The position numbers and the translations under genes are program-made. From assembly GCA_008632985.1 (NCBI GenBank), contig QPGO01000185.1, positions 62,001-126,000 of the forward strand: DNA of 64,000 nt. The letters run 5' to 3'. The notes under the pieces were generated by a model that was not told the DNA's origin, did no database searches, and worked only from the letters and a program-made list of their open reading frames with translations. How positions within the stretch are numbered: the first letter of the stretch is position 1; every line of letters begins with the position of its first letter. Below, piece after piece: positions 7,101 through 55,900 of this stretch. Source of the stretch: Psammoneis japonica (taxonomy: Eukaryota).

Positions 7101-7450
7101 GTGATTTTCAAGTGCAAAGAGTTCATGCTGGCATGCTGCGTGAAATGCCTCAGCCACCTTTTGGGCTGGGCATGCCACGCCAGCAACGTTGGCGCCACAC
7201 TGCACAATCTCTTGGAACATGTTGTGTGGAGGCCTGCCCAGGATGCTGTGGAGCAGAGACACAGAACAAGAGGCAGAGGCGGCAACGTCTTCATCGGTGT
7301 TCGGTGGGAGACGAAAGTGGTGTCGTGGGCGTTGTGTTGTGAGAATGGGAGGAGTTGGGGGGGAAAGGACAGGAGGTCATGAGTTTTTGTTTTTTTACAA
7401 TTGAGCGAGGAGAGCGGAGCACGGCCGCCGGGATGGGATGGGTTGGGATG
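4200..7450. repeat. TpA/CpG-depleted hypermutated block 1 (degenerate repeat or gene relic, unclassified)
   Basis: Long stretches lack TA entirely (e.g. 4501-4800: no TA, one CG by eye) and TG/CA is in excess. ORFs in all frames are Tyr-free and rich in Cys/His. Boundaries are approximate. Confidence 0.8.
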
Positions 7451-34881: not shown

Positions 34882-36544
34882 ATGGCCTCAGAGGTATGGT
34901 TGGTTGGAATCGATTTGTTGGTTGTTGCGCTGGTCTTGACAATGGACAGGTTGTCGCGTGGGAGCAACGTGCTTTTGGCGCGAATCGAGAAAATGCCTGA
35001 ACAAATCATGCTCTGACCCAGGTTCTGATCAGTACTTTCGCCACACTGTAACTCAAAACCGACTCTTTTCAACTTTTTTGAAACATATAGGACGATACAA
35101 AGAACGAGGCACAAGAAGCCACGGCCGAGGGGGAGAAAGAAGAAGACGAAGAAGCTGTCGAACCTGAGATCGAAGCTGAAGAGAGCGAGAGAATTCGAGG
35201 AGGAGGAAAAGTGAGTGGAGCTGGTGGATCGTCGAGAGGAAGTCGCCGACACACTCCTTATGGACGCAATACGTCAGACTCCAGGGCTGGTGACGGCTCG
35301 AAAAATCGTCGTGTCTATGTAGGAAACCTTTCTTGGAATGTTTCGTGGCAGGATCTGAAGGACCACATGAAGACTACAGGCTGTGAAGTTACGCGAGCCG
35401 ATGTCATGTCCACAAACGATGGCAGATCGAAAGGTTGTGGTATTGTCGAGTTTGCCACTGCAGAAGATGCTGAGAAGGCAGTTCTCACTCTCAATGATAC
35501 GGAACTCAACGGACGCCAGATTTTCATTCGTGAAGATAGGGAGGATCAGGCAGGAAGGGGTGGCAGTTTTGCAGCAAATCCCCACCGCTTTTCTTCAGGA
35601 GAACAAGCCCAGAGCCGCAGAGTTTACGTAGGTAACCTCAGTTGGGACGTTGCTTGGCAAGATTTGAAGGATCATATGCGTCAAGCTGGGGAAGTGGTTC
35701 ACGCCGAAGTTATTACGGAAGGAAGCGGTCGCTCAAAGGGTTGCGGAGTTGTGGAGTTTGCAACTGCCGATGAAGCAGAAGAGGCGGTTCGTACCTTGAC
35801 TGACACTGAGCTTAAGGGCCGCATGATCTTTGTGAGAGAGGATAGAGAGACAAGTAGTGGAGCGGCTGGTGGGTTTTACAAGGGTGGAGGCCATCGTCAG
35901 GGGACTTCAGTATATGTTTGGAACCTGTCCTACGATACGTCCTGGCAGACTCTAAAAGATCACATGCGCGCTGCTGGAAACGTTGACCAGGTTAGTTTCA
36001 CAGCTAGTCATCGTTACAACTTTGTTGTTCATTTTTAGTTTGCTAAACCTGCTGCCTCTGCGTCTCTTTGCAAATGCAGGCAACGATACTCAGTGACCGC
36101 GACGGACGTTCGATTGGTTGTGGAGTCGTTGTTTATCAGCGTCCACAAGAGGCTGCAAGAGCCATTCGTGAGCTTCAGGATTCAGAGCTCGACGGACGCG
36201 AGATTTCCATTCGTGAAGACCGAAACCAGTCTGGAGGTGGTGGCGGACGTTCTCGAGGTGGACACGGTGGTGGTGGACATGGTGGAGGCGGCGGCGGCGG
36301 TTTCCAACTTTTCGTTGGAAACCTTTCCTACGACACCACTTGGCAAGATCTCAAGGATCACTTTAGGACGTGTGGCGACGTGGAACGTGCCGAAGTTATG
36401 GAGACGGCAGAAGGCAGGAAGAAAGGATTTGGTACCGTACGATTCTATCAGAAGAGCGATGCGGAGAACGCCATTCGTGAGCTAAACGGCGTTGAACTAC
36501 AGGGAAGGGCGCTGGATGTCCGCCTGGATCATAAGGCGCATTAA
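34882..36544 (+). CDS. Four-RRM RNA-binding protein (Gbp2/Hrb1/hnRNP-M-like)
   Basis: Repeated VYVGNLSW..SWQDLKDHM and GRSKGCG.VEF. Introns 34894-35090 and 35991-36079. Gly-rich linker. Confidence 0.92.
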
Positions 36545-37089: not shown

Positions 37090-37700
37090 CTTCATTTCCG
37101 CATGCTTTCTTGTGGCCGCCCTCCTTCCAGTGTTTCACCCGGGCAGTCTGTTGAACAGTGGATGGTCTTTTTACACCTGGAGCATTTCTGCAATGCATTT
37201 GGCCGATGCCCCAAGCAGTTGCACCCATGAGAGGAAGCCTTCACTTTTTCGTGTTGCGCAGCATGCCTTTGATCCTCAGAGATGGGCCATGACCATTGCT
37301 TCCTTTGGCATGTGGCAGCAATGGTGATCAAGGTCAAACAGAAATGGATCAAAGTCTGTGATCGCCCCCCACGTGTCATTGTGAGCAGCTCAGATGTTGC
37401 TTCTTGGATTCTTTCTGTGCACCACTGGAAACTTGGTGCAACCAAGGCACACTCTTTTTTCTGTTCCCTTGCCATTCTCTGGCAGACAAGGAGTGCCACT
37501 TCTTCTCCCAAGATTTGGACAGAAGAGTCGTTGTTGCTCTCCCAAGAAATTTGTTCTGTGGCTGTCTTGTGTGCCCACTGTTCCAATGAGAAACACAAGT
37601 GGTGTGACAAACCCACTTTGCACACAGGCATGAGCAGAGCCAACAGAACCTCTCAATCATCCATGGTGCAACAACAGCCCAACCAAGATGCCATCACATC
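37090..37700 (-). pseudogene. Decayed MYND zinc-finger gene
   Basis: LQKCSRCKKTIHCSTDC, then after a 1-bp shift RVKHWKEGGHKKACG. Matches MYND consensus C..C....YCS..CQ..HWK..HK..C with Y->H. Confidence 0.75.
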
Positions 37701-40700
37701 CAAGTGGCTCAGACATTTTCCTTTGAAAGGGCAGCTGCCTAGAACCATGCTGTCCTTTGGGATCTTCAAAGATGCATGCTTTGTGATGCCTTGGCCAACC
37801 TGTGAATGGACAGAGAACTTGATCATGGAGTTTGGACAAGTCAGGTGGGACTTTGGCAAACTTCCAACAAACATCTCTTTTGTTCTCACAAAGCTGAATT
37901 TTCAGCACAAAAGACAGACCAAGTGCTGCTTGCATGGTGCTGTCACTGTTGGGGTCCTCCTTTGCTCTGCTTTTCTCCAAGAAAGATGAATGAATTGTTT
38001 TGGTCAGCTTCTTAGCTCTGCTTTCATTGACGCAGATGTGTCATGCCACTTGCTGTCCCAACACATGGGCACTGAAGCAAGCAGATCATGGTTGTCTGCA
38101 AAGTCTACAATGCCCCATTTTGCAACAGCGCTTTTCTCAAATTCACCAGTGTTTGAAACAAAAGACATTGGAACCTTCTTCCAGCATGACCAGTGAGTGC
38201 ATCAAGAGAAAAAAGGCCCACTTTCAGGGCAAGCATGACTCTTCTGCAAGTTCTGGGAGGCACTTCTTTCCCTGTTGTCACTGTGCACTGTGCAAGAAAT
38301 CTCAGCATCAGCAGCATGGGGGTTTGCCCAAAGTGTCAGCAAGCATTCTTGAACCCAGAGTGTCAGCAAGCACTCTTGAAGTCACTCCCAAGCAAGTTTG
38401 ACAGTGGGAAAACCTGCACACATCCCAAAGACACATCCAGTTGCCAAGGCCACATGCCCATGCCATTGCTGCACAAGTCTTGGGATCCCTCCCACCATTT
38501 TTCTTGGAGTTGGCTGGGAAATGTGCCTGCCTTCCTTTGTCTGTTCAAGTTGATGAAAATGACAACTTTGTTTCAGCAATGATGCCAAATGCCAACAGGA
38601 CAGGTTCCCATTGGAGAGCAAACATCATGATGCGACCAGTGCTGGCATCAAAACTTGGAATTTTGTGAAGCCACAGAGCAGCTGAAAAATCAAGGACCCA
38701 GAGGTGTGTTCTGGCAAGCATTGTTGGGAAAAAAAAAGAGCATGGTGTTGGTCATGATGACTTGTTGTGCAACAGCTTTGCCAGTCATGCTTTTGCCATT
38801 GTGTGGCTTTTTGAAAAAGTTGAAAAAACACAGCAACACAAGAAAGATTGCAAAACCTCCCATGCCCCAAGAAAAGCCACACACAGTTGTGGTGATTGCC
38901 TGCTTGCAGTTTTCTGTGCACTTCTTTTTCACAGGGCATGGAGTTGTCACAATTTTTCCCCCTGCCCCAGCTCACAGTTGTCTGACAATGCATGCGCCTG
39001 TTGCTTGCTCTTTTCACCATGGCACTCTCATTGTCATCACCATGGTGGTTGCCACTGGTCTGAACTTGGGCACGTTTGTCAAGAAGCAAGCTTGCTGGCT
39101 GCATCTCCAAAAAAATGCTCTGAGAGGATCATTTGCTGAGGGAGCCATTGTTGTCAAACAACAGTGTGGACATTGGCGCACCAGCATCTGAGACTTTTTT
39201 TGGCAGGGTCACACTTTGCTCATTGCAGCTCTGCCACAGGTGGTGTCAACTGTTTGCAACATGAGAAGGAGAAGCCATTTTGCATCATTTGAAGTTTGTC
39301 CTTTTGCAGCACATCTTTCACATTTGACATTTTCCAATGTGACAACAAGCTTGAAGGATTGCTTCTGGTTGAGAGGAGCAACTTGCTCATGGCACTTTAC
39401 AACTTCAGGCAGGAGCAGGTGGCAGGTGACAGCATCTCATCAGATTGAAGTGCTGCAGCTCTGGGCACAAGTTGTCATGCCAGTTGTCACCAGCATTGTG
39501 TGCATGCTGGTTGGCTCCATCCTAATGTCCCCTTTTTCCCAAGTCTGCAGAGACAGGAAGTTGCCACACAGCAAGACCATTCAAAAGGACAAGAGCTCTG
39601 CACATGCTGCAAGTCTGGTTTTTTAAGTTGCCACTCTGCAAGACCATTTGAAAGGACAACAGTTCTGCACATGATGCCACATGTCTGGTTGGTGCATCAA
39701 TCTGATGCTGAGCATGGGTGTGCAGAGTGGTGGCCAAACTGCAGCTGTCATCTCGTGTGTCTTTTCATTGCCAACTTCTTGAATGACAAACCATCAGAGA
39801 GCAGTGAAGATTGGCTGGCCACGCCACTTTTGAACACACATTCAGCCACAAGCAGACAAGAAAGGGTGTTGTCAACAACAACAGGGTGGCTGTTGGATCT
39901 TGAGTGAGCACCCCACAACACCCAGCAGGAGCACCTGTCCTTTGGCCCATTGACAGAGTTCCAGTGCAACAAAACTTGAACACAAATGAGACAATTTGAT
40001 TTCCCACACCACACCAAGCAGCACACATTGTTTTTTGCCTTCTGAAACAATGCCTTTGCAGCACACTTCCAATTTAGCAAACCAAATGATTGGCTCCAAA
40101 GAGTGACATGAAAGTCAAACAAGGCAAGAGATTGGCAATGATGAAATCTTGCTTGTGAAGTTGCCAAATGAGCCAGCCATGCCAGAAGCCACAGCATGTT
40201 GTCTTCAACACATCCACAGGTTCTTTGCATTTTCCTGCTCTGGTGTTCCATCACACTCCTGCCACTTGCATTGATGTTCTGCCAGCAAGACAGGTCCAGC
40301 TGATTTTGAAAGGAAAAAGATCCCTCTGGTGCAGTGACCCAATTGGTGTCACACTCACCTCTTGCCCCACAGCTGACACCCTGCAACTCAGACACATGCA
40401 AGCTGACACACTGCCCATTGTCAGAACAATCAGCCATGTGCCATCAAACAAGTGTGACATGTCTTGTGCACACTCCACAAAATCCTCCACATGAGTGCAA
40501 CAAAATCTCTCTTTTGTGACTTCACTGTTTGAACCATCAATCAGGTCCACAATCCAACCATTGACCATCTCAGGAGTCAAATCTAAGAACTCCATTCCAC
40601 TGTGGAAACACCCATGCATGGGGTTCACATGGTCAATGTGATGGTGTTGGAAGAGCAACATCAACTTCCCAGCATCACAAATGGTGCCACATGCCCCACA

Positions 40701-41559
40701 TTTGTCCACACAAGGTGGGAAAACTGACACTCAACATCTTGCATGGGTTGCAGATGTTGTTCTTGTCTGGGGCTGGCTGCAACTGATTGCCCATTGATCT
40801 GGTGGTGCACTCATTTCTCATGTGCTCCTCACCATCATCATTGTGTTGGTGTCCGCAACAAGAACACAGTTCGCCTTGCCTCCCAGCTCAACCTCCCATG
40901 ACTTGCCAATGTTCTTTGTGGTCTTGTGTGCTTTGCAAGCATGTTGTTTAATCTCAGATGCTCTCCTTGGATCATTGTGGATGGAGAATGTCAGTGTGGC
41001 AGTGGACACACATGTGTGCACTTCAAGACTTCACACTGGTGCCCATTCATCCACATGGGTCCCACACCACAAAACCAGAGCATCATCTGGTTTCCCTCCA
41101 ATGGCCAATGGGGAGGTGTGTCCACAGAATCTCTCTTCATTTCATCAATGATGTCTCCCACATGAGACAGGTCTGTGACATCACGGCAGAGACATGGGTT
41201 GAAAGTAACCACATCTTGCTGCTTCTGACCCATTTGATTTGATTGATTCTTTCAATGCTCTGCCACAACAATCCTTGTCCACAGCCACTCATCTTTCATC
41301 TCCTGCCAAGTCTGCAAGTTTGTGAAACTTGCTCCAGCAGTTCCATGGCCATCACTGCCCCCCCACATTGTGCAGCACAGCAAACTCATTCTTGTCAAGT
41401 GCATTCATGGCAGATGTTGCTCTGAAGAACAAAATTGTGGCTGGTTGAACAGCATGGTTCATGACCCTTTCTGGGTTGCAGGGATCTTTCATCCATGTGA
41501 ATCAGAACTCTCGTCTGATGTGACAAACAGGAAACACTCTTGTTGCACTTAAAGTGGAC

Positions 41560-44500
41560 AGCCCACAATGGCTCATTTGAACTTTTGAAACTTCTTGCCC
41601 TGCAATGGTTTCTTGTTGGTCAGGAAGTCTCCAACAAGCACACCATTGGTTGGACAATGCTGTGCTCTGAAGTTGCCCTTCTCAACCTGATCAGTGGCAA
41701 AGAAACACCAAATGTTGAGTGCTCTGGACAGCTTTCCAGCACTCCTGCACCCATCAGTTTCCAATGGCACAGCAATTTCATTGTCCTGATGCAGGACATT
41801 CTTGTTCAATGGGATGCCCCTGATGCTCCATGAACAACTTTTTACACTGCGTCGCTGTCCCTGCATCATTGAATCCCACAAGTTCAGCCTCTGTGCTGCT
41901 TCCAGTGTTGAGCTTCTGGCATGTTGACAGAGCCTGCACTGCTCCATTGCCCACTGTCACAACCCCTTCTGTGTGGCTCTTAAAGTCTGTGGGTGAAATT
42001 GTTTGGTGTCTGGTTTTAACCTTGAGACAATGGACTGGCTTTCCCCAGTCCCCACTGGTGGGATCACTGACTCATGTGCACAATGCAGTGACAGTGGGGT
42101 GCACATGTGTGCAGCCTCTCTTGGACACAAACAGTGCCTTGGCCACCAACACATGGAATGTCTTCACTTTGGTTGTCAGTCGGCAATCTTGTGACACTGG
42201 CATCAAACAGGTTCTCTCCAGCTGGCATCATGGCAGCATCCATGCTCTTGATCTCTTCCAGGGATTGACAAATCATCCTGTGAAAGCAGCTGGCAATGTT
42301 GACCTTCACCCTGCCCTTGTGGTGGAGGTCCATGTGGTCACACCAAGGCAGCCATGCTTCTTCTCTTGCTCACCACAGCTCCCATGCATCTTGTTCTTTG
42401 GCCAGCTTGGAAATTTGTCATTTGTGCTTGGGTTCATGTGGCTGGAGATGGCATCATGGCAGCATCCATGCTGCTCTTGATGTCTTCTGGGAACTGACAA
42501 ATCATCCTGTGAATGCAGTTGGTCATGTCAACCTTCACCTTGCCCTTGTGGCAGAGGTCCAGGGTCACTCCAAGACAGCCATGCTTCTTCCCTTGTTCAC
42601 CATGGCTCCCATGCATCTTGTGGGCTGGCTTGGAAATTTGTCATTTGCTGCTTTTGGGTTCACGTGGCTGGCCAAGAACAGGTCACCCACATGGAATTGC
42701 ACACTGGTGTGTTGCTTCCCATTGATGGTTTGATTGCATGGATTGCATGGGTTGAACTCAAATACTTGATCTTCTCCAATTCTTTGCAAAATTGCACATG
42801 CTGCAGCAGAGCTGTGACCAACATGCCATGCACAGCTCCCAACAAGAGAACTCTTTTTCCCTTCTCTGTGACCAGATGTGGTCTGCACTGGTTGGGATCA
42901 ATGGTTGCAGGCATGTCAACCAACTCTCCTGCAATCTTCATCATGATCTGGTTTTTGCCTTTCTGAGGCTCCAGAGTCAGAATCTGCACAAGTGTGCTGG
43001 GCACATTGGCACTCATTGCATTGTGATCTTTCACATTGATGATGGCTGTCACTGGCATTCCTTCTGACAATGCTGTTGGGCTGGCTGACTCATCCTTGTC
43101 TGGCCATTCTCCAGTCAGCAACAATCTGCCCTTTGATGCAACTGTCTTGTTTCTCCATTGTGAACACCAAGGCAGCCATGGTCTTGTTGGTCCTCTCAGC
43201 CAAAGTCACATGTCCTTGACAAATGCTGGTGCAAAGCAGCACACTTGGTTGCGCACTTGTTTGACATCTTTTTTTGGGTGTTGCACCCCTTCTAGCCAAA
43301 TGCTTTTAAGCCTTCATGCAGCAAGTGTTGTTGGGCAAAGGAAAACCCCTTCCCTGGTTGGAGTTGGCCATTGATCTTGCACATGAATTGTGCCACTGCC
43401 ATTGCTGTTTCTGCATTGCCCTTGACATCATCCTCTGGATTGGGACTCATGTTCATTCAGAAATGGCAACAGCACTTGAGTCTGTTTTGCCATTGTTCTG
43501 CTGCTGCTTTGATGATGTCTGCCACTCCTGAGAACCAAACTTTCTTTTCTGTGTGCTTGTGTGATTTTGCATTTGAGGGTGCACCACTCCTTGTTTCTGC
43601 CAGGTGTGGCTGTTGCCTCTTCCTTCAACATTTCTCCTTCCTGTCTTCCATCTTCTTGAAATTCATTGTCATCTTCAAACTCTTTGTCATCTTTGTCTTC
43701 TGACTCTTTGTTGTCTTCATCTCCTTCATTGTTTTTTCTTTGACTTCTTGGTTCTTGTGCTGCTCACCAGTGCTGGATCTTTCATTGGCTGGGATCTTGT
43801 TTCTTGCTCCATGTTGTGTGACTCTGCTTTGTTGTCTTCTTAATCTTCACATTCTGACTCAGACACGTGGCCAGTGTTGTTGTTGTGCTTGTTTTTATTT
43901 TCATCTTTGTTTTCATTCTTTTTGGCATCACTTTCACTTTTGTCATTGTCCACTCCTGCAGCCCATTCAGCATCATGCAGATTGTCTCTGCATTTGCCCA
44001 TGAATTTGAGCTCTCCATGATGCCTTGTGATGTGGCCATTTTCTAGACAGCTCATGTGTGCGTGTCAGTCAAGGGTGTGGCAGTGCACTTGCAGGAACTC
44101 AAAAGCTTGCCTGTGTGCAAGTTCACAGTGCAGTGGCCACCACCCTTGGGCAAATCAAAACCTGGTTGCAGGCAGACACTGTCAATGCCATGCACATCCA
44201 TGTTGTTCACCAGGTTTTTCTCAACATGAGAGAATGCAAATTCCCCGAATGTGAACTCAAAGTGTTTGTTGCAATGAAGGTTTCTTCATTGCATGACAGT
44301 GTGTGGACTGCAAGAGTTGGAAATTCCCTCCTTCTGTGATTGCACATTCAGCATGACAGTGTTCTTGGTCACAGCATGCTTGTGTGTCAACTTTGGTGCC
44401 ATCTTGCATGGCAGACAGTGTGCAGTGGCTCAAGTTTGCTTCTTGATGGTCTGCATGCTCCTCTCAACTTTGGAGACATGATGGCCACTTGTGTTTGTGG

Positions 44501-46500
44501 ACATCAGCTCTAGACTCATGCCATCTGTGACTTCCACAGCATTGCTTTGAACTCAGTGGGATCACAATCAACAAAATTGATCTTGAACAAAGCTGTGCAG
44601 CACTGTCTGAGAATCATGTCCAGCACATCTTAAACATCAGCATGCTTTTTGGACTTCAGTCTCACACTTGATCAACATTTGACAGTCTTCTTGTCTGCTG
44701 CATGGAGCAGCTCAACACCACATGCTTCCATGATGTCAATGCAAAGGACTGTGCCTTCTCTCTGCTTCTCATGTGTCTTGGGTGGTGTGGCTGCAATGTC
44801 GCTCCTCTCATGGGAGAGATGTGCAGATTTGGCTTTGCTTTTTAATGTGTCCATTGGTGGGCCCCAAATGGCCACCATCCTGTCCACATCCTTGGGCATG
44901 ATGGACAAGTTTTTCACCCAGTTTGAATGTAAAATGGCTCAAAATCCCTCACATTGAGCATTCCAGCCTCATGTTGCAATCTGAGTGCTTGCTCAGCATT
45001 TGCCACCTCCCTCTTAGTGCAGCCTGTGCTGGAGTTCTGCTCCGCTGTTGGAGCCACAGTTCCAGATGCACACCATTGGGCTTCTTGTTCTTGTTCTTCT
45101 TTTGACAGCACATTTGCACACAACTTGCTTTCTTGGAGATCTTTTGCATGGTTGAAGAACTTCTTCTTGCTTGGTGCAAAAGCACATGGCCCAATGTCAC
45201 TCACTTTGAACATCGCAACTTGCGCGCCAGTTTTCTTGTCCAACAGTTGGAGCTTGTCTGCTGCGTTCTGCAATCTGAGCTTTGCACACCCTGTCCCCTG
45301 TCCAGGCATGGCACAGGCTTCATCTAAAGTGTCCATTCCTGAGTTTGTGGACAGATCAATCTTGATCTTTGTGGGTCGCACATTGCGCACTGGTCTCTGG
45401 CTTGCTGCCATGCTGAGGGCAGAACCATCCTCAAGGATGATTTCATCCAGTTTGATGCCTGCTGCATTGGCTTGGTTTGTGCTTGTCTCTGGTCTCTCAT
45501 TTGCCAGTTGCAACCCACGCAATGCAGTGCTCCTGCTTTGGACAGAATGGGTTGATCAGTTTGATCTAGCGCTGTCAACACTCATGTTGTCACTGTCTGC
45601 TGACAAATGGTCATTGCCTTGTGTCTGTGCATGACTTTGTCCCCTGATGTCCAGCTTCTTTCTGGTGTTCTTGAACCAATTTTCAAATGCAATGTCACTT
45701 CAATGCTTGCAGTCTGGGGACCTGTGGTTTTGCTCACCACAGCAGCGACAGTGTCATCTTGGCTGCCCTTCTGGGCATGGCTCTGGTCTCTTGGGTTGTT
45801 GGACTTTTCACTCTTGTGTTCTCATTGTTGCCATTCCTGTTCTTGTTGTTCATGCATTTGTTGGTCCTCTTGTTGTGTCATTTGTGAGGATTGTTGCTGT
45901 TTGGATGGTCAGATGGCACATCATCCATTGCCTTGTCTGGGGTCTTTGGACAGGCGTCCTTGCCCGGGCTGCAGTGTTCTCTTTGAACTGCTTGGTCTCA
46001 TGGTTGTTGTGGCACATTCATGCAACTCTGCTTTGTGCTGGCACCCCAGCTCCTTGTCTTTTTGCTGCTTCTCTGACAGGTTGACTTGGTGTGTCACACT
46101 GAAGCTGGCTGGCAGTGTTGTTGTCTTGAACATGTTTAAGTTGGGTCTCTTGGAAGCAAAATCCTTGCACATTTCATGTCTTCTAAAGATCTCACCAGGT
46201 GCACACCTTTTGTGCACTCTTTCTGCATGTGACAGATGACATTCTTCTTGACATCTTTGCACTTTGCATTGTGAGCATTGCCATTCAGTGACAAAGGATG
46301 GAGCTTCATCTCAGGCTGAAAGCTCTTCTCAAAGTCAGTTTTCTTTGCAGAGCAAAGAGATCTTGCAACTCTTGTCACCTCTGCCATCATGACCACAACC
46401 TCAGCCTTGATCTCATCCACTTGTTCCATGCTGCCTCCTCCACTGGCACCACTCATTGTGCTGGGTTCCTGCATTGGTCAACTGCATGAAAGTCAGTGTC
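41560..46500 (-). mobile_element. Degenerate Ty1/copia LTR retrotransposon (diatom CoDi-like), gag-PR-IN-RT-RNaseH order
   Basis: PR-like IILEDGS..TNSG (~45.4 kb). Pre-integrase/IN segment IWGP..TLKSK, VLCIDIM (~44.7-44.9 kb). RT motifs ASPT, MKIAGELVD, EFNPCNPC, QFHVGDL, KHGCLGVTLD (~42.5-43.1 kb). RNase H motifs SSTEAELVG, LHQDN, RALNIWCFF, DFLT.KPLQG (~41.6-41.9 kb). LTRs not confidently located. Confidence 0.9.
42223..42671 (+). repeat. Diverged ~226-bp tandem duplication inside copia RT
   Basis: Copies at 42223-42445 and 42449-42671 both start tggcatcatggcagcatccatg and end gtggctgg. Confidence 0.92.
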
Positions 46501-48379
46501 TGCAAGCACTGAACACAGTGCTGTTGACTCTTTGGAGTGAGTGTTGAGCCAGCAAGTCAACGTCACCAAAGGGGGTCCCACTGGGCCACCTGTGCCACTC
46601 AATGCACTTGCCTTGGTTGCTTGCAGCAGCTGTGGGTTGCTCAGAAGCTGTCAAACATGCTCAAAACTTGCAGTGCAACAGACACCCAGTGGTGCCAAAT
46701 GATGCCAAATCATGCAAACCAAATGATTCACTCCAAAGAGCAAGGCAAAACTAAAGGGTGAGAGGAAATTGGTGCCAATGAAATCTCACTTATCAAGAGT
46801 CACCAAATGAGCCATGTCAGGACCACAGTGTCTTTTTCTGTGCATCCAGGTTCTTTGCATGTCCCATGACCCAGATGTTCCAACAGCCTTGGGGTGTGGC
46901 TTGACCTTTGAAGGAGGAAATTGACTGAAAAGCCATTGACAGCCAACAAGAGGTGGCTTCCAATGGAGCACTTGTGGACCAGCCAGCCAGTGTCTTCATC
47001 CAGGATTGTGCCAACAACAGATGGCAGGAGGAACACAGTGATCAATTGGAGCTGGGCCTTGGCTGCCAACCCGGTGCAGGCTGGAAGTGTGCATTCTTCT
47101 CAGCATCTGAGAGGTGGGCTCAGTGTTCCTGCCACTGTCCCAGGCTGTGATGGGGCATCAACATCCAGAGTCTTGAAAAGGCTTTTTGGGTTTGCCAACA
47201 CTGGGCAAGCATGCACTGCCCCCCCCTCCCCATGGTGACAATCAGAGCAGCATGGAGGGGTGCTCTCTGTGACTGGTGGCTGGAGTCATGTGCCCCCCCC
47301 ACTGCTGCACAGCTGTGGAGCAAAGCCACAGCTGTGGAGCAAAGATTGGGGTCACCCATGCAGGGCCCAGCAAGCAAGAGACACCTGGAAACACTGTGTT
47401 TTGTTCTTGTTTCATTGACTGCAATGAATCCACAGAAAAGTCATCTTGCACAGAGTTGGGCACAGCGAGTTGAGTTGACAACACAACTTGAGTGTTGCCA
47501 CTTGATGGCCAACTCTGGAAAAACACTTTCCAGCTGTTTGCCAGCACTGGTCAACAGGCAGCTGTTCAAACAACAAACAGCGCAACTCTTGAGCTGTGAC
47601 ACATGATGCAGATTCGTTGCCACATCGTCAATCGTTGATGTCCACAATGTCTCGAGGTGATGACAGTTGACTTTTGGTGCATGAAATTGAAGCACTGAAC
47701 ATCTGCAGCAGCCCAGGCAGGGCGTGCCCTCTCTAACTCTCTGCTCTCTACTGCAGCTAGTCTAGAGAGCCCCGCTGCAGCCACCGGGTAGCAGAAGATG
47801 GCAGTGAGGACACTGGATGCACTCCTCCGCTTGTGCGCTTGGCCGAATTGTTGGCAAAGCATCATTCACGGTTCTCCAGTTCACTGTGCTCACATCTCGC
47901 AACTCGCAACTCGCAAGTGACATGGGCCATGGGAGCCCAATTTGCAATCAACACTTCTTTCTTCTTGTCCTCTGCTGGTGGTCATCCGCACAGATGCCAT
48001 GATGCCATGTGTGGCATCTCTGGCCTGCGGCAATCCTGGCATTGATTCTACGAGATGCCATGTGAGATGCCACATTTGTTTGTGACGCAGTCATGTAGAA
48101 CTTGCACCACTCCAACCGGTCCATGCCTGAAAGGTGAAAGTTGCGAGATGTGAGACACTGTTGTCATGGGTTGCAACTGTTGGAAGTGGTGCACAATGTG
48201 TGTCTGCAGCAGCTGGTCTTTTCTTGATGGTGTTGAGGATGCATGGCAACAGCTGACCCTGCGGGAGATGGAAGTGAATCTGGTGATGCCATGCAGCAAA
48301 CGCCAAGTCATGTTGTGGTCGCAATGAATCAGGCCAGCACCATGCAGCAAACACTGTCACACAGTCACACCACATGCTG

Positions 48380-50870
48380 TGCATCACTCTTAAGTTCATT
48401 GGGAAATTGACCCTTCTTGCACCCAGGTTGGCAGTGGATGCGTGGGTTGCTGCTTGTCCTGTGCTGTCATTGCAGGTCAACCCTTGGCCCCGATTCTTTT
48501 GACACAGCGGCGTGTCACACTCCGCACAGCACCATGATGTTGTGGTGCAATTGTTGTGCTTCAATTGTTGTGCTTCCGACACATCCAACAATTTTGTTGA
48601 TGCGGTTGACCAACATTGTGCCCGCTCTGAAGTTGCTTCTCTGTTGGAGGTCTCGTTGCATCGCCAGCATCATCAGTTGTTCGCTTGAGTGTTCCCACTG
48701 CCGGCTTGGATGGTGGAGTTCGAGGGAGACGGTCCCGGTCAGACCTGCGCTTGAGGCCTTTGCAGAGCATGTCTGAGAATTTTCTAGCCGTCATGGCTCC
48801 CCCATGAGTTGTTTGGTCATGGTGCCGATGGAGCCAGTGAAGATCCACAACTGACATTCCAACAGCAGTGACAAGAAGCCGGAACCAGCAACAACGTGTT
48901 GGCCATGAATTCTCCAGACCAAGAATGTCTTGTCTTTGTTTGTTGTGTTGGTCAATGATTGGCAGACACTCGTGTAGAAATTCGCAAAGTTTTGGGCACG
49001 GCAGTTCCTTCGATGCTGCTTCTCCATGCTCATTCTCGAAGTTCGACACACAAGGCACATCCGACGGAGAGGTTAGTCCACACATTGAAATGAAGTGTGC
49101 AACGCTTGATTCGCTCCACGCGTGACCCATGGCAATCAGCTGCACTCCAGCGATTGTCGTCGAGAACGTGACCCACTTTCCAGCCAAACGATTGCTGTGT
49201 CGTGCCATCATGACTCTGCGGATGGCAGCCCTTGGAAAGAAAGAAGTGTCATTCTTCACAACGAAGGTCGAGTGAACTTTGAACCGTTTTGACACCTCGA
49301 CGCAACTCACAACACTGCCGAACCATGCATCGCCTCCGACCCAACCGCCTTCCTTCACTCCTGCATGCTCCACTTGCCGCAGTGTTTCAGCCACATGCGC
49401 AGGAATGTTTGATCCATCAGGTAGACTGGATTGCTCACCGTGGCACTTCTTCATTTGCTGGTGTTCTGGCAGCTGAACCGGGTCGTTGCACACTAGAATG
49501 CCAGCAGTGCATTCGGCCCCATTTCGAAACATCGTTCCAAGAGGCACAGGCTTGCGGGGCTCACAGGTGCAATTCGGGAGTCCACCCAACTTGGATGTCT
49601 TGGGTCTCCAGCCAGACATAGACTCATCTAATGCCAGCAAGATGAGGGATTTGACAAGTTGTCGTCTCCTGTCATTGAATCCTTTCAGCGCCGGCAGAAA
49701 CACTTCCCATGGCATGTCGCGTTTGTCACGAAACCAGCATTGTGGGTCGGCCCAACAAAATGCAGCTGCGCTTTCGAAACACTTGAAAGTTTTCACGTCA
49801 ACATGTTGCCCAAAGTCGGGGTAGAACGAGCGACCCTCTGAAGCTCCCGACTTCCACAGATTTTCAACTCCACATTCAATTGTAGAAGCAGCTGCAATGA
49901 GCACTGTATGACACTGCTTCACTGTCCAATCTGGATCTTCAGCATCCGGATCATGGAAAGTGCGGTCAAGCTGAAGGCATGTAGCATGATGGCTTGCTCT
50001 CCTGTCACTCAGGTGTCTGTCCAAAATCTTTCCGTGACCAGTGACATCCGGGAGCACGTGATCAAAGAAATTCTCTTGAATGCTCTCATTGGCGAAGTCC
50101 ACGTCCTTTAATTCAACAGGTGGGTCCGGCACTGTAAGTGGAGACTCCATTACGTACTCCGTCTCGCCGTGCATCTTCCACACAACCTTCTTTTCAACGC
50201 ATCGCGGATCGGCTCCATGCCTCGTTTCAAAGATGGATTTTTGAGTGACTTCTGCATCTTTAAGCTCACAGAATTCATCCAATGATTGAAGTGCCAAAGT
50301 CTTCCTTGATTTTTTTGCTGCAGGTTCATTATCGTCGCCATCTTTCGAGCGGCTCCTACGTTCCTGTTCTGACATGGGGTTTTCCTCTTCCCAGTCCTGC
50401 ACGACGGTGATCTTGTTGGCGGTGACATGACGAACTCGTTCATCCGATTCAGGAAGGGTGTCAAAATCAACATCCCAACCTACTTTCGAATTTCCGCCCT
50501 TGACGGTTCCAAAAAAAAGAAAGTCGTTGGGGGCGTCGCGAGGCATTGCTTGTCGTTGCACCTCACTGAGAATGTGGCAGAGGTCCGTTCGTTTGACTTT
50601 CGCTCGACGGCCGATTTTCATTCGCTTTTTTGAACCTGTCTTCCTTTTCGTTCGAGATGTTGTCAGGGGCGGTTTCTGTGATCCAGAATTATTGCTTCTG
50701 CTGCTCCCTTGGTCAGATGCTTGAGGAGGCTGCACGGGAGTGCCTTCAACATCATTTGCAGGAGTCTCAGCAGCAGCAGCATTTAGTTGCAGAGCCAGGT
50801 CCATTTGAGCTCTTTCAACCACTCCAGTGGACGCTTGAGGTGTTGATCCATGTTCACCAATGGATTGCAT
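48380..50870 (-). mobile_element. piggyBac-like DDD transposase (PGBD/DDE_Tnp_1_7), inactivated
   Basis: 769-aa ORF 50870-48561 with LDESM, EPRKPVPLG, GDAWFGSV, IDQHNKQRQ..LE..WPT..CWFRL. The Cys-rich domain (CWMCRK..WCCAECDTPLC) is split by a frameshift. TIRs and TTAA TSD not identified. Confidence 0.9.
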
Positions 50871-51117
50871 GGGGGGGAGACACTCTCGGAGGCAGCGACG
50901 GCGGTCGCTTCTTGTCCGCTCATGGTGCCGGCACGCATTTGGCGTCTCGGAGACGCTATTTTTCAGTCAACTTCAGACGACTTCCAATGCAACTTCCGAC
51001 CGAAGACACCTTATGTAATGCATATGCCCCTGTTCTCTGAGTTGTTTAACGATTTTCTGTCAACGGAAAAAGACTTGGGGAGCACATGAAGCATTGTTCT
51101 GGTGTTTTGGATGGGGA

Positions 51118-51440
51118 TACTACAAATTGCAAAACAATTGCGCGATACACGTGCCCGAAGGTCGAATATCGTTGCCCGAAGCAACATTCTTCCTTCGCGC
51201 AGAATGTCCATTCTACATAGAATATGGTATTGAAAATCTCATTGTAGTCGCATGAGTCGTTGAAGTAACTTCATCAATGACCTCTGTGGTACTGTGCTAC
51301 GTGATCTACACAAATCGGACATTCTCGAATGCTGGTATATTTTCTACGGTCTCTACGTGCGCGAAGCTCTAATTTCGTGCCCGAAGCAACAATCACCCTT
51401 CGGGCACGTGTATCGCGCAATTGTTCAGCAATTCGTAGTA
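51118..51440. mobile_element. MITE with 44-bp terminal inverted repeats (terminal TA included, probably a TA target-site duplication, Tc1/mariner-like)
   Basis: 51118-51161 tactacaaattgcaaaacaattgcgcgatacacgtgcccgaagg matches the reverse complement of 51397-51440 with 3 mismatches. Internal direct repeat tgcccgaagcaaca. Confidence 0.85.
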
Positions 51441-51518
51441 CCACATTGACACCATATTTGGTCGAAATATGGTATGTGTACGGATAACCACTAGAGCTAG
51501 TCTCTACTATCGTTGGTA

Positions 51519-52667
51519 ATGTCTTTCAAGGTTGAAACATCCTGTCCTAGTGACAGGAGCTACTGGTTACGTAGCAGGCGTTCTGATAAAGCAGTTGTTG
51601 GAGGCGGGAGTCAAGGTCCACGCCGCGGTTCGCGATCCTTCGAAGAAGGACCGTCTCGAATATCTTGTCAAACTTGCCGACAAGTCCCCCGGCAGCATTC
51701 AGTTCTTCCAAGGAGACTTGCTCCAGCCTGGAAGCTATGCAGAAGGAATGAAGGGGTGCTCCATCGTATTTCATACAGCGTCCCCTTTTGTAGTGAGCGT
51801 CAAAGATCCAGTCAAGGATCTTGTTGAACCAGCCGTCGAGGGTACCAAGAATGTACTTGAGCAGGTCAACCAGACTCCGTCTGTGAAGCGCGTCATCTTG
51901 ACTAGTTCCTGTGCTGCAATTTACACGGATGCATCTGAGACATACGATGCCCCAGGAGAGATTCTGACCGAGGAAGTATGGAATCGAACAGCCTCTTTGG
52001 ATTATCAGCCTTACTCCCTCTCCAAAACGTTGGCAGAGCAGGCTGCATGGGTGATTGCAGGATCGCAAAAGCAGTGGACCTTGGCAACGATCAACCCTTC
52101 CATGGTCATGGGACCTGGAGTCAAGTATCACGGCTCTTCCGAGTCCTTCTCCATGATCAAATCCATCGGAGGAGGCGAAATGGCGAGCGGGTGCCCCAAC
52201 TTTGCCATTGGTGTTGTGGATGTACGCGATGTAGCCCGAGCTCATATCGCAGCAGCCTACAAGGAGGGTGTCAAGGGGCGTCACATTCTCTGTGGCCATA
52301 ACATGCTTCAAATGGCACAGGCTCTCAAACCCAAATATGATGAATACCCCTTGCCACCACGCACTCGTAAGTATTTTTTGTCCTTATTGTTGTTTGTTAG
52401 AGAAGGAATCTTGTCTAACATTACATGGTGCACCTCGCTGGTTTCTTACGTGCAGTTCCAAAGACAATCGTTTGGGCCATTGCTCCATTCATTACAGAGG
52501 GACTCACGCGTCAAATGATAAAGAATAATGTCGACGTCCCCATCAAGTTTGACAACACTAAGTCCAAGGAAGAGCTTGGAATCGAATACAACTCGCTGGA
52601 GAACACCATGCAGGACATGTTCCAGGTGCTTGTTGATGAGGGTGTCGTAGAAAAGGCCAAGAAGTAG
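51519..52667 (+). CDS. NAD(P)-dependent epimerase/dehydratase (extended SDR, DFR/CCR-like)
   Basis: VLVTGATGYVA, VFHTASPF, VILTSSCAAI, YSLSK catalytic motif. Intron 52367-52455. ATG 51519 is out of frame with the body (apparent indel near 51540). Confidence 0.9.
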
Positions 52668-53049: not shown

Positions 53050-55900
53050 TGCCGGTGCGATCAATGCCCGTAGATTTTGTACTCATTTTGCCCCAGGAAC
53101 AGAAAGACCTTCACGAGCATCTGTGATCACATTTTGGAGTTTCTACAACGTCATCTCACAAACTTTGCCCTGAAGACCGGCACAGCAAGGCACAACCAGC
53201 TGCCACAAAGCCTTTTCATTCATCTCGTTTGTGTGATCCGATCACTGTTGGGGATGAGGGCCAGCCCTTTTCTCAAACAAGGAACAAGAAGCAAGTGTGC
53301 TCAGTCTTCCAAAACTGGTTGGCACTGATCCTTGCTGCAAGCATGGTGCTCTTGTGTTTGCAAGATGTGAGTGCTCAAACAGTCATGAGGGCAAACTTTG
53401 GTGTGCAATGGATGTGGCAGCTTGTTGGGCAAGTGCTGCTGTGGAGGAGAGTTTGGGGCTGTTGTGGAGATGCTGGTGCCGACTCTGCCTCTACAGGCCA
53501 CATGTCCAGACCAGCTCATTGGCCAGGCAAATGATTGCAGGTCTTGCTGAAAACAGCTGCAGTGCTGTCATGAGGGATTTGACAAAATCTTGCGCCAGTG
53601 GTGGTGGCAAAAATTGTGATGCCACTGCGGGCATCTTGAACCCCTGCCATTGCCAGAGCACATTTGATCTCACATGTTGCTTGTCAACCCTGGTCTGTTT
53701 GTTGACAGGCACCCAAGCACTTTCTTGATGGGTTTGATTGTGTGCAAGTTGTTGACAAGAAGCACATGTGATTTGGTCATTTGTGATGCTGTGTCATGTG
53801 CCAGATGTGCCGACTCTGCACCTGCCAACAATTTGGTGGCCGCTGGACATTTGGCACCCACTGAGTTGAAAAGGAAACGTGAAGACAAGTCAAAAAGGCA
53901 ACTGAGTTGTGGTGGTGTGAGGCAGTGCTGGTGCAGGAGATTGATGTAGAAGCAACTGAGAGCAAGGTAATGAGGGAGCTGCCATAAAAACTGTTTTTTG
54001 AGAAAGGCCCCAGATTTTTCTATGCACAGAGCAATGACTTTGGTCAAAAGGAGGCAGATCTTTTGAGATGCTGCAATGAAGTGACTGCAATGGCTCTGCC
54101 CTGACCATGTTGTCAATTTGAAGAGAGTTGGGCTGGAGTGAAAATGCAGAACAAGTTTGCTCACAAAATCCTTGCTTGGCATGTGGCTCAACAAAAAAGC
54201 ACTTGAGCAATGTTGACATGATCATGTTGATGCCACCACTCCCACAGAATGGCAAAATTTGCTGAAATTAGCTTCTGTTGTTCTTTTGTCTGCTCTGGAT
54301 TGACCCCAGAGATGCGCAATGTCATGTCTAAAAACCAAAAAGTGGGCAGCCCTTGCAGCAAGTTTTGACAGATTGCGTGGCACATTTTTGGTGTGCAGGG
54401 CAGGCAAAACATGGCCGCCAGCAACCGCAAGGATTTGGCAGCATGATGTGAAATGGAAAGTTGCCACAAAAGTGGGTTTTACATTGATGTTGTTGTTTGT
54501 CTTGGCATTGAAAAAAAAGATCAGCTCCCCTTCATCACACCTTTCACCACAAGTTGTGAATCCTGCACAATCTGCTTGACTCAAACATTTGAAAGTGTTG
54601 GCTGGATTTTGACCCTGCACCCCTCTGCCAGCCAGAGACAGAAACACCCCCAAGAGATGCAAGCACCATTGGTCTCCCACTCTCTTTGAGAATGGCACAT
54701 GTGAGAAAGAAAGAGGTGTGTGCATTGTTCATGGTGCCGTGCATTTGAAAATGGTGGAGCTGGCTTTTGCCAAAGGCAGCACCTTTCTCACAGGAGAGAA
54801 AGCAGCTGTGCAGGACAAATTTTTTCATGGCTCTGTGTGACCCCCAGCACACCCCTCTGCTGTTTCTTGAAGCCCCAAAAGATGTCAGGACCTCTCCACT
54901 GGCTGGTGTGATGTCAGCTGGTTTTTTTGGAAATGCACTCTGGTGAAAAACAGGGCTTTTGTGATCACACACAGCACCACATGGGATTGGGCAGAGCATG
55001 GCTGCTGCTGCCATGTGTTGATGCTTTGCAGTTAGCTGGCACAACAACAATTCAACCAAGTTCCACACAAGCAGCAACATGGTTGCTTGCTGTCCCAACA
55101 GAGAATGGTTTCCTGTGCACTGTTGGCCAATCCTCCTCAAGCACTGCTGGCTTCACAAATTTTTCACAACATTCAAGAAGTGCATTGCCAAGACAAGCAG
55201 CACAATGATTTGCTGCTGGAGTGTGAGGTGTGTGTGTTTGTTCTAATTTCTGTCTTGTTGTGCTGGTTGTGGTGCCAGAAATCAGCTGCAACAGAGACAC
55301 CTGCCAGCTTGCAGAGCGCCCAAGCTGCACATGTGAGAATTTTTTTCATGCTGCCCCCAAACTTGTGATGTGGTGAAGAGTGTCTTGTGTGCTGCCCAAG
55401 CTGTGTTTGCAAGGATGTGAGGCATGAACTTGCCAAGCTTCCATGCTGGTTTGCTGGCAATTTTACAAAAAAGCAGCGGCAATGAGCGCCACCCAGCAGA
55501 GCTGCAAAAACCCCCCATGAGCCACAGAGGGGGGCTTGCTTTGAGCACTATTTTCAGCCTTCCCTTCCCACATTTCATCTCAGAACTCCTGTTGCCACAA
55601 AGAAGCAACATAAAAAATGCACAGCACTTGAAAAGGCGGGAGTGCCAAAATGCTCCCCTGAAGTGCTGCATTTTTTTGTTCTCCTCAACCAGCACCACCA
55701 TGCTGGAGGAAGGGTTGAGAGTCTCTCAACTCACCTCATGGGCCGGCTCTTTTCAAGTCTCTTTTCAACTCTCTTTTCAACTCACCTCACAATCCAGGTA
55801 GAAGCCACACAAGCCTTTGGTGCAGAAAGACACCTGTCGAATGTCATCACAGTTCGAACGGCGCGAACGGAGATGCAAGGATTGCATGATGTGTCACGCA
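53050..55900. repeat. TpA/CpG-depleted hypermutated block 3 (unclassified relic)
   Basis: Strong TA and CG depletion with TG/CA excess and Tyr-poor ORFs in all frames. Sits between two normal genes. Confidence 0.8.

Follow-up and report, generated by a model that had tools for sequence, protein, structure and literature searches.

Which process strips the dinucleotide TA from transposon DNA in a diatom genome, and why do the few TA sites that remain share one sequence context? The question is raised by a 64,000-nucleotide stretch of Psammoneis japonica (assembly GCA_008632985.1, contig QPGO01000185.1, positions 62,001 to 126,000 of the forward strand), called the window here and numbered from its first letter. 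It consists of gene-rich DNA, with an observed/expected ratio (o/e) mostly between 0.4 and 0.8 for TA and near 1 for CG, interspersed with blocks in which TA and CG each fall to about one tenth of expectation or lower and CA and TG are roughly doubled. A two-state segmentation placed these blocks at 4313-7274, 37144-47718, 47914-48967 and 53152-55835; their GC content (0.48) equals that of the flanks. We focus on the old transposon block at 37144..47718, which retains 32 TA and 47 CG in 10,575 bases, with CA and TG at about twice expectation. Its depletion begins within a few hundred bases past ~37000. Transposons in this genome lose TA to TG and CA after they have inserted, and the 3' neighbour of the adenine sets the rule, a pattern in which we have high confidence.

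Surviving TA sites in a decayed Copia element

An earlier note on this DNA, based on an approximate count by eye, had reported that the TA left in 37700-46900 is mostly YTAR (Y, pyrimidine; R, purine). Our full count agrees: the 31 sites (37739..46793) comprise 23 YTAR, 5 YTAY, 2 RTAR and 1 RTAY, and the YTAR sites divide into 10 TTAA, 5 CTAG, 5 CTAA and 3 TTAG. All nine coordinates that the note had named for this block are correct. Given as the base before TA, the YTAR sites lie at 37739, 38012, 39522, 39623, 40074, 40583, 40948, 41549, 41980, 42016, 43292, 43306, 43840, 44043, 44510, 44630, 44842, 45014, 45324, 45566, 46136, 46183 and 46751. The unbiased YTAR share had been put at a quarter; it is in fact 16-17% (293 of 1797 TA in non-depleted window DNA; Fisher p 3e-12 against the block), so the excess is stronger than claimed. 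With the piggyBac region excluded, the background is 266 of 1660 (chi-square 73.7, 3 df, p 7e-16), and three TA-rich Copia copies give 185 of 1094 strand-summed sites. Depletion is far from equal across the 16 NTAN contexts, with retention running from 0.62 (TTAA) down to 0 (ATAG, ATAT, GTAC, GTAT). The same tendency, noted earlier for the TA- and CG-erased block 1 (4313..7274), is seen in five of its six remaining TA (YTAR at 5586, 6162, 6368, 6631 and 7094).

The block contains a decayed Ty1/Copia pol remnant on the minus strand (41561..44944; integrase region, reverse transcriptase and RNase H). It is recognised by collinear tblastn matches (E down to 2e-34), in the order integrase, reverse transcriptase, RNase H, to polyproteins bearing RVT_2 (PF07727), and is interrupted by stops and frameshifts; its DNA likeness to other copies spans ~41479 to 46597. 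A direct Pfam scan of the decayed frames returned nothing, and neither Pfam, tblastn with other Copia clades nor a local profile identified the element; a library search succeeded. In the genome searched (91 Mb, 597 contigs) this family has 45 matches, and all 30 that were fetched are TA- and CG-erased. Replication within the family used 27 of these 30 loci (self and two near-duplicates excluded; 103,844 depleted bases): 186 of 289 surviving TA are YTAR, next to 45 YTAY, 56 RTAR and 2 RTAY. T stands two bases before TA in 59% of these survivors vs 26%, giving TTTAAA-like surroundings.

At the 19 TA sites in 41400-46700, aligned copies read TG in 89, CA in 60 and TA in 28 of 242 cases, and at CA or TG sites they read TA in <1%; the 19 sites are therefore positions of the element itself. 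To judge from these alignments, the TA at 44510 and 44842 are old survivors, those at 42762 and 44043 look like newly arisen TAs that escaped, and those at 43292, 45014 and 45566 are probably of the latter kind. The earlier description of YTAR as surviving sites fits the old survivors and does not extend to the new arrivals.

Could such a block arise with no special mutator, through GC-biased conversion, copying from mutated paralogues, selection on stop codons, piggyBac target sites or an assembly artefact? TTAA, the target site of piggyBac, is the commonest survivor (10 of 31), a piggyBac-like element adjoins the block, and part of the survivors appear to be new TAs. The window's TA sites are nevertheless element positions at which other copies read TG, CA or TA, and short-read contigs reproduce the block. 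Gene conversion ignores dinucleotide identity and would not also change CG to TG, and copying from paralogues is contradicted by copies that differ in direction at the same site. Gene conversion, TTAA targets and an assembly artefact were rejected on this evidence, and we regard an origin without a mutator as extremely improbable.

The short-read contigs come from run X1, possibly the assembly's own sample, and are identical to six stretches of the block, each 687-1060 bases long, which speaks against an assembly artefact and not for independent biology. These contigs also differ from the assembly, at full depth, at TA/TG and CG sites (41850, 44512, 47724, 47743 and 47815); one surviving CTAG reads CTGG and two TG read TA. 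Such differences could represent ongoing mutation between DNA samples, alleles or paralogues.

Direction, context and timing of change in younger copies

The 45 matches to the window's own family (30 fetched) yielded no TA-rich copy, and we therefore took the mutation spectrum from three other, younger Copia families, in each case measuring actual copies against an actual TA-rich member of their family. Younger families, as turned up by a search for Copia reverse transcriptases, occur in three conditions: some have normal TA and CG, some retain CG but have TA erased, and some have lost both. Family 1 (6.6 kb, 348-base long terminal repeats (LTRs)) has 27 copies and the TA-rich copy L091 as reference, family 2 has 10 loci, two of them overlapping, and family 3 has 20 copies (L174-L193); all targets analysed are repeats. 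The coding body of family 3 is GC-rich and TA-poor, and its 5' LTR and leader are TA-rich and mostly spared.

In family 1, TA is down by 36-73% in copies with <=0.13% transversions, having become TG and CA in kilobase tracts, with 0-2 TA>CG double changes per copy; sibling copies have lost 0-9%. Among copies 98-99% alike, TA loss spans 0 to 73%; in heavily hit tracts it reaches 80-90%, on both strands. The tracts of nine family 1 copies contain 1124 A>G changes, 152 C>T (111 of them at CG) and 24 transversions. A changed to G after T at 1000 of 2308 positions (43%), as opposed to 40/3241 (1.2%) after A, 56/4072 after C and 28/4135 after G, and the 3' base graded the response (TAC 475/788, TAT 272/599, TAG 156/502, TAA 97/419). 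Transversions amount to 24/28,221 inside tracts (0.085%) vs 7/14,173 outside (0.05%), and transitions at CH (C not followed by G) are flat between the two.

This spectrum bears directly on a polymerase eta-like enzyme, which would make the changes by error-prone gap filling as methylated or damaged transposon DNA is repaired time after time. That polymerase has a hotspot for A>G at TA (WA, meaning AA or TA; PMC11817618). The genome has five Y-family polymerase loci, and the coupling to CpG loss described below would fit repair of T:G mismatches. What was found is AA changed at 1.2% vs 43% for TA, near-flat transversions, flat CH transitions and no same-strand patches. Save for a diatom polymerase with a TA-only error spectrum, the spared AA and the transversions largely refute such gap filling, which we consider very improbable.

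Survivor counts are blind to the difference between an A in TAY and an A in RTA; the direction of change discriminates, as the A with a 3' pyrimidine is on the top strand in YTAY and on the bottom strand in RTAR. In family 1, YTAY became TG 582 times and CA 250 times, and RTAR became CA 104 times and TG 42 times; taken site by site, the A with a 3' pyrimidine is preferred at 108 of the 126 asymmetric sites (p 8e-17). The preference recurs in family 2 (259:104 events) and in the body of family 3 (709:298, 20 copies). A competing-risk model with site bootstrap (2241 site-copies, 266 sites, 12 copies; L097 omitted as the twin of L100) gave a rate ratio of 3.87 (95% 3.06-5.43) for a pyrimidine vs A at +1, and 1.85 for G. 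Purine vs pyrimidine at -2 had no effect (1.04, 0.84-1.25); with the four bases taken separately, A at -2 is slightly favoured and the others lie at 0.6-0.7. An A at +2 (0.57) or a T at -3 (0.55) lowers the rate, that is, within A/T tracts, and sense vs antisense shows no strand bias (0.95, 0.82-1.11). The motif is A>G in 5'-TAY, equivalent to T>C in 5'-RTA, damped in A/T tracts. The earlier note had the context preference right in naming RTA/TAY; the -2 ratio rules out both an A-in-RTA motif and symmetric recognition of alternating purine-pyrimidine DNA, and what remains is one motif on two strands. Both As of a site must be cold for it to last, and YTAR persists for this reason. The rates measured in young copies predict the order in which the 10 symmetric NTAN classes survive in the window's old family (Spearman 0.90), where GTAC is rarer than expected from them.

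Outside the motif, and after removal of variants common to >2 copies or present in little-hit copies, A>G inside tracts affects VAY (V, not T) at 59/5367 vs VAR at 10/6064; outside tracts the counts are 4/2943 vs 6/3349. The few CG left in old blocks are enriched in RCGY (176 vs 81 YCGR), which may arise because CAY can become CGY.

Target-site duplications are readable in 12 of 15 copies although the two LTRs of one copy differ (in L092, 18 of 19 LTR differences are changes towards G/C in the 5' LTR), indicating that the mutations were made in place after insertion. The direction of change at shared sites agrees in just 45-74% between copies, so the hits are independent and not copied between elements. 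The exception, at 100%, is the pair L097 and L100, which share descent. These two carry identical TA changes wherever both are hit and have matching letters in the 5' flank, and in L100 the hits extend further 3'; by these features they would be a duplicated or allelic insertion at two stages. Neighbouring hits share a strand slightly more often than expected at 2-6 bases (z 2.6) and 7-15 bases (z 1.9) and not beyond (z ~0), which argues for many separate events over a single pass along an opened strand. The preference of the earlier note for a sequence-specific process over drift or GC-biased conversion is upheld: one flanking base sets direction and rate, AA, CA, GA and transversions stay near background, block GC equals that of the flanks, and copies were hit independently after insertion. 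That this specificity is enzymatic, as the note also proposed, we infer.

Along family 1, the first 0.5 kb has a TA loss of 0.41; the loss then rises to 0.79-0.89 at 0.5-3 kb (0.84-0.89 at 0.5-1.5 kb, shortly after the 5' LTR) and has dropped to 0.18 by 5.5-6.5 kb. Family 3 is spared in its first 0.5-1 kb and has a weak gradient, and we rejected a general 5'-to-3' gradient. Survival at 266 sites has no nucleosome-scale periodicity at 8-13 or 140-220 bases. Spread from hit neighbours was rejected on one copy, L092, which is unhit beside a TA-poor 3' flank and hit beside a normal 5' flank.

CpG decays in the same tracts. CG>TG stands at 88/3494 inside and 5/1468 outside, and in 18 copies the loss of TA rises with that of CG (rho 0.92) and follows neither CH transitions (-0.14) nor transversions (0.10). 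In one 2-kb stretch, hit copies have lost 499/587 TA vs 55/966 CG, TA going about 15 times faster, and little-hit copies 21/222 TA and 6/365 CG. By preceding base, CpG loss in young tracts is 44/950 for ACG, 26/790 for GCG, 24/956 for TCG and 17/798 for CCG. Since diatom transposons are silenced through DNMT5 CG methylation (PMC9998398), the mutated tracts may be taken to be CG-methylated, silenced chromatin; the genome has 27 C5 methyltransferase (PF00145) matches. Several C5 methyltransferase-like frames (L155-L157, on contigs C297 and C301) lie in TA-erased DNA and are almost tyrosine-free, and these multi-copy genes are, by their sequence, apparent targets of the mutator themselves.

Enzymes that could make the changes

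For the lesion we lean towards adenine deamination in DNA by an enzyme of the TadA/ADAT fold. After a transposon inserts, a kilobase tract of it would become CG-methylated, silenced chromatin, in which a TadA/ADAT-like deaminase would convert A to hypoxanthine site by site. Either A of the TA palindrome is changed, once, on either strand, with an almost absolute requirement for a 5' T (43% vs ~1%) and at a rate set by the 3' neighbour (C = T > G > A, ~3.9 : 1.9 : 1) and lower in A/T tracts. The deaminated A would be fixed at replication over many cell divisions. In the tracts, only doubly cold sites (YTAR, best TTTAAA) persist, and CpG decays more slowly alongside. Retroelements lose tyrosines, including that of the catalytic YxDD of reverse transcriptase, and the process may serve genome defence. 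The earlier note had suggested a comparison with the contexts of polymerase eta and TadA; of the two, only TadA agrees, in the ranking of contexts. Editors derived from TadA favour a T on the 5' side and work better before C and worse before A (PMC8989541). Such editors (ABE8e, ABE8.20) make A>G in DNA with the same order of neighbours; they are engineered and act on single strands opened by Cas9 (PMC8989541), and the copies here give no sign of single-strand patches.

Several observations weigh against a TadA/ADAT-type deaminase. Sequence cannot separate A>G from T>C on the opposite strand. TadA editors show a 5' T preference of 25-52% (PMC8989541), as against about 35-fold here, and Fusarium Tad2/Tad3 editing favours a purine at +1, the opposite of what we see (PMC9600606). 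The YTAR excess is weak in block 3 (53152..55835, TA- and CG-erased), at 4 of 14 remaining TA, yet RTAY is again absent (0 sites). TadA-type enzymes need a single-stranded substrate, which predicts same-strand clusters, and no excess beyond 15 bases was seen; many separate rounds could mask such clustering. In the genome, an expanded or clearly special deaminase family was not found: it carries genes that we take, by their motifs, to be dCMP-deaminase-, TadA- (contig C38), ADAT2- (contig C26) and RibD-like, and none stands out.

A lesion on the thymine side would leave an identical footprint by symmetry. The T of 5'-RTA would be modified, for example to 5-hydroxymethyl- or 5-formyluracil mispairing with G, or through a repair route, and read as T>C. 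Such a change would parallel C>T at R-C-G in the same tracts, where CpG loss is tightly coupled and, in young tracts, highest after A. TA is palindromic like CG and could carry a maintained mark, and the distributive two-strand pattern suits a mark on double-stranded DNA. In a stop-free frame on contig C79 (L172:2819-4291), a zinc deaminase domain is fused to a DIOX_N/2OG-Fe(II) oxygenase; this frame bears on both leading mechanisms, and may be a salvage enzyme. Its presumed resemblance to base-salvage enzymes counts against a thymine-side role, and we know of no precedent for near-saturating T>C through thymine oxidation. Tet_JBP had no match in the genome, an uninformative result as the control likewise matched nowhere. 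On this evidence we consider a thymine-side lesion unlikely.

Somewhat less likely still is an A_deamin enzyme (ADAR/ADAT1-type) acting on the DNA of RNA:DNA hybrids, or RNA that was edited before reverse transcription. ADARs are able to act on hybrid DNA (PMC11817618), and the genome has two A_deamin genes (L170 on contig C40, L171 on C79), with no dsRNA-binding domain in the neighbouring frames scanned; family 1 tracts start past the 5' LTR and fade 3', as if linked to transcription. ADARs are, however, slightly enriched for G/A at +1 (PMC9600606), bases that are cold here, and DNA transposon copies are also hit, with no same-strand clusters. Editing at the RNA stage predicts a single strand and equal LTRs, both of which are contradicted, and was rejected. 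In general, ADAR and fungal Tad2-Tad3 editing resemble our pattern in having U/T at -1 as the main determinant, strongly so in fungi, and differ in acting on RNA with A/G at +1, as against DNA with C/T at +1 (PMC9600606).

Neighbouring elements, related systems and effects on coding

Where the blocks of the window have been identified they are transposons, and the genes flanking them have normal TA and CG. These include the RRM gene region adjoining the old block (35091..36544, plus strand), beyond which TA depletion begins, and an NAD-dependent epimerase gene flanked by two depleted elements (51520..52518, plus strand). For one gene of the window, the homologues that carry names are proteins of diatoms. 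The younger piggyBac-like element (47914..51124, minus strand; DDE_Tnp_1_7 by Atlas features, with high confidence) has an 801-residue frame at 48561-50966 and is TA-poor with CG mostly retained; it is an intermediate stage in which TA is erased and CG largely kept. A paralogue on contig C271, 94% alike, has lost 15 TA that the window kept (one 1.5-kb alignment), and the two differ mainly at TA, CG, TG and CA steps. A 323-base element with 44-base inverted ends at 51118-51440 has normal TA and very high read depth, and one short-read contig lacks it (joint 51116-51441); it is a young insertion like a miniature inverted-repeat transposable element, spared by the mutator. Within the old block, a minus-strand frame at 39751..40443 has a weak match to CxC1 (KDZ-associated; E 0.0014, 19 bits vs a Pfam cut-off of 26.9) and is possibly a lead to a second element type. 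The block also holds tandem duplications at 42243-42621 (~229 bases) and 39558-39677 (~67 bases), 84-90% alike.

The closest known case is that of Mettrop et al. (bioRxiv 10.64898/2026.01.13.699255), who measured in real time a TpA-only A:T to G:C hypermutation, ~1000-fold, of integrated viral DNA in Bigelowiella natans. Its targets are integrated DNA of nucleocytoplasmic large DNA viruses and virophages; TpA-poor coding sequences include reverse transcriptase and DDE domains, and the authors propose an ADAT-type deaminase, ADAT2. As there, TpA goes to TpG/CpA on both strands of foreign or silent DNA, far above background, with the process on in some lineages and off in others, mobile DNA hit and genes spared (the identified window blocks are transposons), and nearly all target changes A:T to G:C transitions (1124 A>G and 24 transversions here). 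Of our A>G changes, 1000/1124 follow T (strand ratio 0.95), with a small VAY tail where B. natans has TpA only. The host is a diatom and not a chlorarachniophyte, and the loss is near-saturating on LTR and DNA transposons. The preprint's main text describes none of the 3' pyrimidine rule, the A/T-tract effect, the VAY tail or the CpG coupling, and gives 0 matches for diatom, trinucleotide, context, pyrimidine and flank; its supplementary Table S2, on 231 mutations, could hold flanking bases. No report of TpA hypermutation in a diatom was found in open-licence PubMed Central and bioRxiv. The signature is real and quantified, and is a variant of a process described once before.

Repeat-induced point mutation (RIP) of ascomycete fungi is likewise a hypermutation by transitions that strikes transposons after insertion, in tracts and at one dinucleotide, and leaves genes alone; the process here resembles RIP in its working but is not RIP. 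Polarity is reversed: RIP makes TpA from CpA, whereas here TpA is erased and no stops are made. C>T at CpA, the hallmark of RIP, stays at CA>TA 9/4069 inside and 4/2019 outside tracts. Copies 98-99% alike can remain unhit, which suggests that repeat pairing alone may not suffice. CpG decay of methylated transposons, which turns CG into TG/CA in the same blocks, accounts for the CG loss and not for the TA loss.

No stop can arise from a sense-codon pair by TA>TG or TA>CA (0 cases), and tyrosine codons (TAY) become Cys or His. One hit copy retains a 1145-residue frame with no tyrosine. Of 14 frames examined, 8 read CVDD, HVDD or HTDD at the YxDD motif, loss of whose tyrosine inactivates reverse transcriptase, and these 8 include the frame of L033, which is otherwise TA-normal. 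In the pol frame, family 3 has 25.6 TA-type positions per kb, 60/127 in tyrosine phase, and family 1 has 44.3 per kb, 46/190 in that phase; family 3 may be a lineage that shed dispensable TA and adapted to the mutator.

Traces also appear in other proteins, with 2 of 176 outside Copia proteins nearly tyrosine-free. In the clusters of two tyrosine-poor proteins (P0277, P0264), 13/14 and 11/14 conserved tyrosine columns are His or Cys, with Arg in two members at one column and two columns His/Cys-variable among members. Their best matches in this genome, among the best candidates scored, reach no more than 49% and 50% identity, and the process therefore probably runs in other organisms. The same tyrosine-loss trend is seen in 4 of 58 further proteins, which may stem from this genome. 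Among outside Copia proteins, tyrosine is replaced by His or Cys in P0314, P0332, P0402 and P0446. A metagenome scan with a TA-rich query gave 8 loci, none erased (6 at TA o/e 0.69-0.86, the others at 0.37 and 0.52); its patterns contained tyrosines, so erased copies were not expected to match.

Hardly any natural enzyme is known to edit adenine in genomic DNA, and adenine base editors had to be evolved. We put forward, tentatively, that diatoms, perhaps with much of the stramenopile-alveolate-Rhizaria group including B. natans, may possess a natural DNA adenine editor. It is similarly conceivable, though short of probable, that this editor is recruited to silenced chromatin, CG-methylated or other, converts TAY to TGY on double-stranded DNA, kills retroelements through their tyrosines and not through stops, and has made some element lineages shed the TA that they could spare. 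Our data add a second eukaryote lineage, and ordinary transposons as targets, to the sole preprint case and link it to CpG decay. They also expose an annotation hazard: long reading frames stay open in hit copies, which pass for genes and, judged by divergence, look older than they are. An erasure of ~85% of TA whose motif can be measured (T-A-C/T; low before A and within A/T tracts) offers a biochemical test for candidate enzymes and a marker for scanning other algal genomes, just as tyrosine replaced by His or Cys in Copia proteins is a protein-level marker for mapping the process across genomes. If it exists, such an adenine editor would mirror fungal RIP on the A:T side and be nature's equivalent of the engineered base editors.

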